DNA of 64,000 nucleotides from Escherichia coli. Lineage in GTDB: Bacteria; Pseudomonadota; Gammaproteobacteria; Enterobacterales; Enterobacteriaceae. The position numbers were made by a program. Positions within the stretch are counted from its first letter, which is position 1, and every line of letters begins with the position of its first letter. The stretch lies in the NCBI RefSeq assembly GCF_041248615.1, contig NZ_CP158426.1; one strand, 5' to 3'. Below, one piece after another: positions 1-3,000 of the stretch.

Positions 1-3000
1 CGGTTATATCGCTGGTATCAACAACAAGATGCTCGTGCCCTCGCCCCTGCCAGCCGCGACTGGGCGCTCATCTGGTGGGATAGCGTACCGCAAGAGGCAC
101 TGCGATGATTTTCCTTTCTCAGGCACAAATCGATGCGTTACTTCTGGAAGATATCCAGGGCGGTGACCTGACCACGCGAGCATTAAATATTGGACACCAG
201 CATGGCTATATAGAGTTTTTTCACCGTCAGGGCGGCTGCGTCAGCGGAATTTCTGTCGCGTGTAAGATGTTAACTACGCTGGGATTAACTATTGATGACG
301 CGGTCAGCGACGGTTCACAAGCGAACGCGGGTCAGCGGCTAATCCGTGCGCAGGGTAATGCCGCAGCACTTCATCAGGGATGGAAGGCAGTCCAGAATGT
401 GCTGGAGTGGAGTTGCGGTGTTTCTGATTATCTCGCTCAAATGCTGGCGTTACTTCGTGAACGTTACCCTGATGGCAATATCGCCTGCACCCGAAAAGCA
501 ATTCCGGGCACCCGCTTACTGGCCTCGCAGGCAATTCTGGCTGCCGGAGGACTGATTCATCGTGCCGGATGTGCGGAAACCATATTATTGTTTGCCAACC
601 ACCGTCATTTTCTTCATGACAATCAGGACTGGTCAGGCGCAATCAATCAGTTACGTCGCCACGCACCCGAGAAGAAAATAGTTGTTGAAGCCGACACGCC
701 GAAAGAGGCAATCGCCGCGTTACGCGCGCAACCAGACGTACTTCAGCTCGACAAATTTAGTCCGCAACAGGCAACTGAAATTGCGCAAATAGCACCGTCG
801 CTGGATCCTCACTGCACGCTGGCTCTGACCGGTGGAATTAATCTGACAACTCTCAAAAATTACCTCGACTGCGGCATTCGCCTTTTTATTACCTCCGCGC
901 CTTATTACGCGACACCAGCTGACATTAAAGTCAGTCTGCAACCCGCAGCCTCTATTTAATTCTTTGTTAAACGGAATTTATTCTATGAGACTCAAAAAAC
1001 GTTATCTCTGCACAGCATTATCACTTGCCTTTACCCAGCAGGCCGTAGCGGCTCAGGAGAGTGACACGCTGACCGTATGGTCCAGTCCGGTATCATCGAC
1101 GACGACCACCGTTCTCGATCAACCCACCATGAAGGCCCTGGATAAACAGAATGTCGCTCAGGCATTAAGTGTCGTCCCCGGCGTGGTGCTGCAAAAGTCA
1201 GGCAGCCGCAACGAAGAACAGGTAAAAGTTCGTGGCTTTGATAGTCGGCAGGTGCCGGTCTATTTCGACGGTGTGCCCATTTATGTTCCCTATGACGGCA
1301 ACCTCGATCTGGCGCGGATTCTGACCAACAATCTGGGGGCAGTCGAAGTTTCCAAAGGGTATTCGTCGCTGCTTCAGGGGCCTAATCAGATGGGCGGAGC
1401 CATTAATATCACCACCCAGAAGCCAACAAAACCTCTGGAAGCAAATCTGGGATATCGCCAGGGATGGAGCCGTAGCCAGGACAATGCCTACGATATGCAT
1501 GCTTCATTTGCCGCCAGCAGCGATCTGGGGTATTTGCAAGTCAGCGGTAGCCAGCTAAAGCAGGATTTTCTCGGCCTGCCGCATGGTGTAAATAATGATA
1601 TTGCAGGCAAACACGGTAAGATGATTAATTCATCGGCTGATGATAAACGCGGCATTGTGAAGCTCGGTTTTACACCACGCGAAAACGATGAATACACATT
1701 GACTTACATTAAGCAGGATGGTGAAAAAGATAACCCGCCATACAGTGGAAATAGTGGTCAAAAATCACGCTACTGGCAGTGGCCAGAGTATGACAAAGAA
1801 AGTTTTTATTATCAGGGAACGACCCAACTAAACGATCGTTTTACCCTGAAAAGTCGGCTGTATCGCGACACCTTTGAAAATACGCTGATGATGTACAACT
1901 CGCTGGCTGATTTAAAAAATAAAAAAGGCAGCTACAGCCATTATTCCGATTACAGCGACGGTGCCGGGTTACAACTGGCAGCCGATGTGCGTGAAAACGA
2001 TCTGCTGTCGTTTGCCGTTAACTGGAAAGATGACGTACACCGGGAAAAAGGTGCGCCGCACGCCGCTTACGATCGCTATGAAGATCGTACCTGGTCGCTC
2101 GCCAGTGAATATCAATGGGCTGCTGCCGATAATGTCGATGTCGTGGCTGGAATCAGCTATGACTGGCGCGATAGCGTAGAAGCGAAAAAACATGAGAAAG
2201 ATGGAAGCATCACCCATTATGACGACAACAATCAGTCAGCTTTTAACTGGCAGGTGATGGGGAAATACCACTTTGCCAATGAAGACACGCTGGCGCTTTC
2301 GTACTATGACCGCACACGCTTTCCGACGCTGAAAGAACGCTATACCACGTCCAAACCTGCGTATAACCAGATAGCGATTGTTAACCCGCAGCTCAAACCG
2401 GAACGCGCGCGCGGGGTGGATTTAACCTGGAATGGTGCCTTCACGCACGACTGGGGGTTTGAGGTCAGCGTTTACTATAACCGGGTGAGTGATGCCATCC
2501 TCTCGCACAATATCGATGCCGATACCATTCAAAATCAGAACAGCGGCACGGTGGATTACAGCGGTCTGGATGCCGGTATTAAGGGGAAAATCAGCAATAT
2601 ACTGGATGTAGGATTGAGCTACGCCCTGATCCACGCTGATGCCAAACGCAAAGACATCGGCAAGATAACCGATCTGCCAACGCAGACAATGACCGCATGG
2701 ATGACTCTCAAACCGTGGGAGCCGTTAAACGTAACGCTGTCGGAAGAGGCGCGTTCCTCCAGCTACAGCAACAGTGACGGTTCACAAAAAGCCGCCGGTT
2801 TTGCGGTGACCCACATTCGAGCCGATTACACCTTAGGTCATGGCTTCAGCGTCAATGCGTCGGTCAATAACCTGTTTGATACCAAATATGCCTACAGTGA
2901 AGGGTTTATTGAAGAAGGTCGCAATTTCTGGGCAGGTATCGAGTATACGTTCTGATGTGAAAGCGGATAGCGGCATCTGTATCGCTATCCGCCTTATGAA

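Follow-up and report, generated by a model that had tools for sequence, protein, structure and literature searches.

This work concerns the left end of a 64-kb stretch of Escherichia coli DNA (contig NZ_CP158426.1; the whole stretch of 64,000 nucleotides is called the window hereafter), where positions 1-2955 carry the last part of an operon located between treA and ymgE. The window is 100% identical to the E. coli record NZ_OW967178.1, which was used for the genes upstream of the window, with window position 1 corresponding to position 15001 of the 33-kb locus L001. In the RefSeq annotation of this identical record, six close-packed genes on the same strand occupy the treA–ymgE interval, in the order Peripla_BP_2 binding protein, FecCD-family permease, ABC ATPase, S-adenosylmethionine (SAM)-dependent methyltransferase, ModD and TonB-dependent receptor. 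The 3' end of gene 4 and the whole of genes 5 and 6 are inside the window and genes 1-3 are upstream of it (Table 1). All six genes have orthologues in dozens of species, and we therefore regard them as real. Based on the evidence described below, we propose that the operon would be a ModE-repressed, TonB-dependent system for acquisition of molybdenum or tungsten, with a probability of about 0.7.

It is noted that several features had already been recognised in an initial annotation of the window, which placed a 656-amino-acid (aa) TonB-dependent receptor and a ModD-like gene with the quinolinate phosphoribosyltransferase (QPRTase) fold at the ymgE flank, saw a further coupled gene cut at the window edge, and read the arrangement as a metal-uptake operon. 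The open reading frames (ORFs), the Pfam matches and the TIGR01334 match agree on the first two genes; the gene cut at the edge is the 3' end of the methyltransferase gene; and the binding protein, FecCD permease and ABC ATPase found upstream of the window bear out the metal-uptake architecture. The translational coupling stands for methyltransferase and modD, where the stop and the start codons overlap as ATGA at 105-108, and has to be given up for modD and the receptor, which are separated by a gap of 25 nt with no overlap (TAA at 957-959, ATG at 985). Here the receptor start is taken as ATG 985, while the mechanical ORF call begins at TTG 964.

Table 1. Features at the left end of the window (positions in the window)
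Feature	Position	Strand	Basis and remarks
Class I SAM-dependent methyltransferase, 3' end (operon gene 4)	1..108	+	RefSeq annotation; 270 aa; start 705 nt upstream of the window
modD, QPRTase-fold ModD family (operon gene 5)	105..959	+	284 aa; TIGR01334, QRPTase_N + QRPTase_C
TonB-dependent outer-membrane receptor (operon gene 6, last)	985..2955	+	656 aa; PF07715 + PF00593
Right junction of the presence/absence polymorphism	2932..2955	+	Final 24 nt of the receptor reading frame, shared with K-12-type genomes
Inverted repeat, 10 bp, GCGGATAGCG / CGCTATCCGC	2963..2992	.	Read from the sequence; between convergent receptor and ymgE genes
ymgE, conserved flank gene	3005..3259	-	RefSeq annotation; PF04226

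The evidence that carries the proposal comes firstly from the promoter region of the operon. A perfect palindrome, CGCTATAT-N8-ATATAGCG, is present at L001 11481-11504, with its end 24 bp upstream of the first operon gene. All 14 core positions agree with the E. coli ModE consensus ATCGNTATATA-N6-TATATANCGAT (PMC545781), and the K-12 modA operator, CGTTATATtgtcgcctACATAACG, shares with the palindrome both the 8-8-8 geometry and the spacing from the start codon. The core match is unique in the 33-kb locus, where 0.13 matches are expected at up to 2 mismatches, and the same scan of the 64-kb window gives zero matches, with the operator lying upstream of the window. Moreover, a perfect TTGACA is located 17 bp upstream of the ModE box in the E. 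coli leader, and therefore the −10/start region would be inside the operator, giving a repressor geometry of the modA type, where the likeness is judged by the position that we take the modA footprint to have.

The ModE box is also conserved in the other species that carry the system. A scan of a genome collection gave 80 loci from distinct species, which were probed by tblastn with the six E. coli proteins. Three arrangements emerged: the complete operon of six genes, which is spread across the Enterobacterales; a form of five genes that lacks ModD, seen in Shewanella and a few others; and, in distant loci of the Desulfobacterota type, a receptor gene followed by those for the methyltransferase, binding protein, permease and ATPase. 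The receptor itself has orthologues with identities of 45-98% across many Gammaproteobacteria (83% in Citrobacter, 58-65% in Shewanella, about 51% in Morganella, Providencia and Proteus, 45% in Pseudomonas aeruginosa), with further ones in Hafnia, Serratia, Edwardsiella, Pectobacterium and Gilliamella. In 61 of 84 loci, each of a different species, the 300 bp preceding either the first ABC gene or the receptor gene contain a ModE box with at most 1 mismatch. In terms of density, 80 boxes occur in 41.8 kb of upstream regions versus 10 in the remaining 1.54 Mb, an approximately 295-fold difference, and most of the ten boxes found elsewhere also adjoin the system. When the leaders are aligned, the box is the sole conserved island amid divergence, together with a TTGAC-type −35 hexamer ~17-22 bp upstream of it. 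In Proteus, Providencia, Morganella and Shewanella a second ModE box is located directly upstream of the receptor gene (at about 8966 in locus L006 and about 8954 in locus L008); E. coli lacks this second box, as just 25 nt separate modD from the receptor gene there. In addition, ModE boxes precede the homologues in Chromatiales, Thiomargarita, Verrucomicrobia, Alcanivorax and Spirosoma.

A different mode of action of the same box has to be considered at this point. In E. coli, ModE activates moaA, dmsA and napF, and if it activated the present operon as well, expression would coincide with molybdenum availability and the imported compound would be a different one, such as a substrate or cofactor that is needed alongside the molybdoenzymes. 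The location of the P. aeruginosa receptor homologue beside the nar genes and moaA1, which are genes of anaerobic respiration, is consistent with this scenario. However, activating ModE sites sit upstream of the promoter, unlike the box of the operon, the centre of which is about 36 bp from the start codon in E. coli (median 39.5 bp across the loci) and downstream of the −35 hexamer, thus overlapping the −10/start region as in the repressed modA. The homology of the permease to the molybdate permease MolB also argues against the scenario, which we consider very improbable.

The proteins of the inner membrane point in the same direction as the operator. Among the solved structures in the PDB, the closest relative of the permease is HI1471 MolB of Haemophilus influenzae (223 bits, E 5.6e-65), ahead of FhuB, HmuU and BtuC, and for the ATPase HI1470 MolC is the second match and the best match among bacterial importers (E 1.2e-35). 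In H. influenzae, MolBC-A is a characterised low-affinity importer of molybdate and tungstate, and modD is present in the same cluster (PMC4031551, PMC3928620).

The receptor contains a plug domain (PF07715, 3e-21) and a barrel domain (PF00593, 1.5e-33). Its N-terminus has the signal peptide MRLKKRYLCTALSLAFTQQAVA, cut before AQES, and then a sequence, DTLTVWS, resembling the TonB box, the consensus of which is exemplified by DTLVVTA of BtuB, while its C-terminus reads ...GIEYTF, with a terminal Phe. The AlphaFold model (predicted template modelling score, pTM, 0.82) shows a long-stranded barrel. In the Foldseek search with this model, the top matches are all TonB-dependent transporters, with OprC giving the top 18 (template modelling score, TM, 0.75; 17-18% identity) and ZnuD also listed, in a ranking that is non-discriminating, as PfeA, Cir and BtuB score nearly as high as OprC. 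Judged by its domains and its modelled fold, the protein is a TonB-dependent outer-membrane receptor with a plug and a predicted 22-strand beta-barrel. It is below the curated cut-off of every NCBIfam equivalog that was tried (siderophore, haem, B12, copper, FecA and CirA), with bit scores against cut-offs of 126.7/223.5 for TIGR01783, 126.1/316.9 for TIGR01785, 79/600 for BtuB, 50.5/472 for copper and 26/1100 for FecA, so that homology does not point to a well-characterised housekeeping transporter, which would have counted against the initial annotation. The P. aeruginosa homologue is likewise below the NCBIfam subfamily cut-offs, and no model specific to the receptor is present in NCBIfam (June 2026).

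The gene neighbourhoods of the receptor homologues give further evidence for molybdenum. The P. aeruginosa homologue adjoins moaA1 (PA3870; PMC3568122), ppiC and narIJHG, and a modA-like palindrome, CGTTATG-N10-CATAACG, is present upstream of it. In Pseudomonas lopnurensis and Alcanivorax, modE is located directly upstream of the receptor homologue, and in Lampropedia the homologue has modABC and moaACD upstream and Mol-like ABC genes downstream. Since stand-alone receptors adjoin modABC or modE in this way, free or loosely complexed molybdate or tungstate would be the simplest reading of the ligand. Moreover, Proteus mirabilis carries the operon, and in a modA mutant of this species the anaerobic growth was restored at 1.6 µM molybdate (PMC10174112), implying that another molybdenum route exists in it.

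By contrast, in the initial annotation a metal or siderophore role was suggested, with a Fur box to be looked for upstream and expression to be checked under iron limitation. If the operon encoded uptake of iron or siderophores under Fur, with an orphan receptor, the Fec/Fep/Fhu architecture would be expected, and the operon has it, with its receptor, Peripla_BP_2 protein, FecCD permease and ATPase; the RefSeq name of the binding protein is 'iron ABC transporter substrate-binding protein'; and the receptor gives weak, sub-threshold matches to the subfamily models of siderophore and haem receptors. However, with a consensus of the type GATAATGATAATCATTATC, no credible Fur box was found in the 336-bp leader, where the best site reaches 13/19 and is equalled by 24% of shuffles, and the scan of the 33-kb locus gave no Fur site with up to 3 mismatches in the operon region. 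The cis element that is conserved is the ModE box, the receptor stays under the cut-offs of all the siderophore, haem, B12 and copper models, and its neighbours in other taxa are molybdenum genes rather than iron genes. The operon is thus a predicted member of the ModE regulon and not of the Fur regulon; the suggestion of iron with a Fur box gives way to a perfect ModE operator, and we see little chance that iron or siderophore uptake is the function. Separately, the sole Fur-like site in the 33-kb locus (16/19) is at L001 440-458, upstream of the gene of the ycgV autotransporter and ~14.5 kb upstream of the window.

The two remaining proteins are enzymes. ModD matches TIGR01334 with 503.6 bits (cut-off 178.85) over profile positions 1-277 of 277, while its score with the NadC model, 135.1 bits, is below the cut-off of 198.4. 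Of the ten active-site positions of QPRTase, eight are kept in ModD, with T138, R139, K140, H161, R162, E201 and D222 (M. tuberculosis QPRTase numbering) being retained, and the changes R105->K, K172->F and D173->A/T are invariant among the ModD orthologues. With the roles of the QPRTase active-site residues presumed to apply to the ModD positions, ModD is probably an active phosphoribosyltransferase that uses a different acceptor. Quinolinate is an unlikely substrate because these three changes are invariant and the NadC score is below the cut-off. The candidate assignment of ModD as NadC was rejected on the sub-cut-off score and the incomplete set of quinolinate-binding residues. The methyltransferase gives generic methyltransferase Pfam matches and no specific NCBIfam or Pfam family, and the searches brought up no relative that would be informative. 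Its AlphaFold model (predicted local distance difference test, pLDDT, 85) resembles, in Foldseek, generic small-molecule class I methyltransferases (TM 0.5-0.58), so that the fold search yields no clue to the substrate. Across the loci the methyltransferase gene tracks the ABC genes rather than the receptor gene, and it is found beside the ABC genes even in the distant Desulfobacterota-type loci, at 27-33% identity.

Based on the above evidence, the working of the system can be pictured as follows. At low intracellular molybdate, ModE would dissociate from its operator, which overlaps the core promoter, and transcription of the operon would follow, as the sequence and the position of the operator suggest. 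The receptor, energised by TonB-ExbBD, would then carry the molybdenum species through the outer membrane, as expected from its family membership. In the periplasm, the binding protein would pass the molybdenum species to the type II ABC importer, consistent with the homology to H. influenzae MolBC. Finally, in the cytoplasm, the methyltransferase and ModD might act on the imported species or on a companion ligand.

Several points weigh against this picture. The binding protein matches MolA (HI_1472) remotely, with E 1e-7 over 74 residues (214-287), and is nearer to the uncharacterised structure 4PAG (E 2e-26) than to MolA; moreover, as noted above, its RefSeq name refers to iron. MolA itself binds molybdate weakly, at about 100 µM (PMC3928620). 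Molybdate, being small, is thought to cross the outer membrane via porins (PMC8264917, a 2021 review), so that the need for a TonB-dependent entry of the free oxyanion is not obvious. The methyltransferase and ModD have no place in a simple model of oxyanion import. It is also noted that ModE is a dual regulator, so that the box alone is no proof of repression, and that the ModE binding, the molybdenum-dependent expression and the molybdenum transport are all inferred from the sequence. As to the binding protein, no specific NCBIfam or Pfam family was found for it. A separate candidate, in which the binding protein encoded beside the receptor homologue of a Haemophilus metagenome-assembled genome (MAG) would be the characterised MolA, was rejected, as the same picture of a remote match was obtained.

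Chelates or cofactors are the usual cargo of type II (BtuCD-like) importers and of TonB-dependent receptors, and this leads to another scenario, in which the regulation is the same and the ligand is different. The ligand would be complexed or modified molybdenum, such as a Mo-catecholate 'molybdophore', thiomolybdate or a cofactor of the pterin or molybdenum cofactor (Moco) type, and the methyltransferase and ModD would process the carrier, thus releasing the molybdenum. The constant partnership of the methyltransferase with the ABC genes down to 27-33% identity is consistent with this scenario, as are the weak molybdate affinity of MolA and the state of the ModD active site, which retains the residues on the phosphoribosyl pyrophosphate (PRPP) side while its acceptor pocket is altered (K172F, D173A/T). 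Also consistent is the pairing of the receptor with a secreted protein of the Oxidored_molyb family (PF00174): in P. aeruginosa, at L004 10977-11525, a gene encoding a secreted, stand-alone 182-aa protein of this family overlaps the gene of the receptor homologue, and the same pairing is present in two proteobacterial MAGs and a Flavobacterium (L075, L080, L088). Such a protein may bind molybdenum or molybdopterin in the periplasm. However, in several taxa the receptor is alone or beside modABC, with ModA binding the free oxyanion. ModD is not tied to the importer, being found also with plain modABC as in the modDABC of G. sulfurreducens, and the loci are without genes for chelator biosynthesis. 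A search for cobalamin and Moco riboswitches gave no relevant Rfam match over L001 11000-18600 (cmscan, E<=1), covering the leader and the operon, and the fold of the methyltransferase gave no hint of its substrate. We therefore regard a complexed ligand as possible but on the unlikely side. In a more far-reaching form of the scenario, the receptor family as a whole would be a dedicated TonB-energised gate for molybdenum, with a ligand that is complexed or modified (thiomolybdate, Mo-catecholate or pterin-bound) and that ModD and the methyltransferase process to release molybdenum in the cytoplasm; this form is somewhat more doubtful still.

Irrespective of the ligand, the distribution of the operon among E. 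coli strains deserves attention. At the same place MG1655 and K-12-like strains have ycgR-ymgE-ycgY-treA without the operon, in agreement with the initial annotation, which places ycgY and then treA beside ymgE in K-12. The homology of the two states ends directly after the stop codon of treA and resumes at window position 2932, inside the receptor ORF: in the blastn comparison of the locus L002 with L001, the alignment restarts at L001 17932, equivalent to window 2932, and all the operon-less genomes align only from this position onward. The K-12-type genomes thus keep the last 24 nt of the receptor gene (G-V/I-E-Y-T-F-stop). In these genomes a 622-bp segment with 41% guanine plus cytosine (GC), carrying ycgY, stands in for the 6.7-kb operon, whose GC of 51.5% is to be compared with 50.4% in the flanks. 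The same treA...ymgE/emtA position is occupied by the operon in E. albertii, several Citrobacter species, Raoultella, Enterobacter spp. and Intestinirhabdus. Because of this synteny across Enterobacteriaceae, the native GC and the 24-nt remnant of the receptor gene in K-12-type strains, the operon is, on the genome comparison, ancestral rather than an acquired island, and the K-12 lineage lost it by replacement. The earlier description of these genes as accessory relative to K-12 is thus right as to their absence from K-12 and is not supported if taken to mean a gain. An intact operon, defined by at least 80% coverage, is present in 2139 of 5426 complete E. coli genomes (~40%), with E2348/69 (enteropathogenic E. 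coli, EPEC), avian pathogenic E. coli (APEC) O18, O157:H7 and O145:H28 among the carriers.

Some further observations on the locus are recorded here. The search of the E. coli genomes matched the operon at 2152 places, 8 of which belong to records with a plasmid label. Two variants of the receptor occur: a 720-aa E. coli form with PilZ/YcgR domains (P0004), apparently a receptor::ycgR fusion brought about by deletion of ymgE, and a truncated form of 486 aa (P0022), common in Shigella flexneri (568 member sequences), which is probably a pseudogene. For ycgY no family match was found in NCBIfam or Pfam, and its lack of similarity to the operon led us to reject an origin as an operon remnant. The inverted repeat GCGGATAGCG/CGCTATCCGC, which is perfect over 10 bp and is also kept in K-12-type genomes, is a possible shared terminator of the receptor and ymgE genes; a simple terminator scan did not call it. 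A second presence/absence difference from the K-12-like comparison genome is at window 8302-9738 (+), between cvrA and dadX, where a hypothetical protein of 478 aa, absent from that genome, gives weak leucine-rich-repeat matches (PF12799); a 50-aa ORF at about 7754-7906 (-) accompanies its gene.

As regards the significance, molybdenum is needed for the respiration of nitrate, formate, dimethyl sulfoxide (DMSO) and trimethylamine N-oxide (TMAO), and this respiration drives the blooms of Enterobacteriaceae in the inflamed gut and their fitness in the urinary tract. A conserved receptor under predicted ModE control implies an active and regulated outer-membrane step for molybdenum or tungsten, and a dedicated receptor gate for molybdenum, if true, would overturn the view of diffusion through porins. 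Carriers of the receptor make up ~40% of E. coli, with O157:H7, EPEC and APEC among them, and the receptor also occurs in Citrobacter, Proteus, Providencia, Morganella, Shewanella and many P. aeruginosa strains; the operon would make molybdenum scavenging, and perhaps the sensitivity to tungstate, variable among strains. K-12, being without the operon, may represent the molybdenum uptake of E. coli incompletely. In addition, the operon provides a concrete genetic context in which the function of ModD, a puzzle since its discovery, can be probed.

Finally, we compare the operon with known systems. The nearest one is MolBC-A of H. influenzae (HI1470/HI1471/HI1472) with modD (HI1473), which has in common with the operon the type II ABC importer with its MolB- and MolC-like parts and the modD gene in the cluster, and of which molB is repressed by molybdate (PMC4031551, PMC3928620). 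By contrast, a TonB-dependent receptor and a SAM-dependent methyltransferase are additional in the E. coli operon, which has a canonical ModE operator; its binding protein is related to MolA only remotely and is closer to 4PAG; and no experimental work on any of its components was found in the literature. With ModABC of E. coli the operon shares the promoter-proximal ModE palindrome, its geometry and its distance to the start, and presumably the same derepression at low molybdate, whereas ModABC has a type I importer and a class II binding protein and, in E. coli, no outer-membrane component, methyltransferase or ModD. OprC of P. aeruginosa (copper) and ZnuD of N. meningitidis (zinc) are likewise receptors of ~650 aa without an N-terminal signalling domain and under the control of a cognate metal sensor, but their ligands are cations while that of the present receptor would be an oxyanion, and the score of the present receptor with the NCBIfam copper model is far below the cut-off. 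The overall architecture is common to the Fec, Fep and Fhu systems, from which the operon differs by having no Fur box and no siderophore biosynthesis or esterase genes and by having the ModE box, the methyltransferase and ModD. As to the enzyme, ModD and NadC have the fold in common, while ModD differs by K172->F, D173->A/T and R105->K and by its sub-cut-off score. Our search of the literature brought up neither a TonB-dependent receptor under ModE control nor this E. coli operon, although an earlier, purely computational prediction is possible (for example, in the RegPrecise ModE regulogs). The architecture of the operon is thus a known one, with a receptor and type II ABC uptake, a Mol-like inner-membrane part and control of the modA type, while the ModE-controlled TonB-dependent receptor is apparently new.

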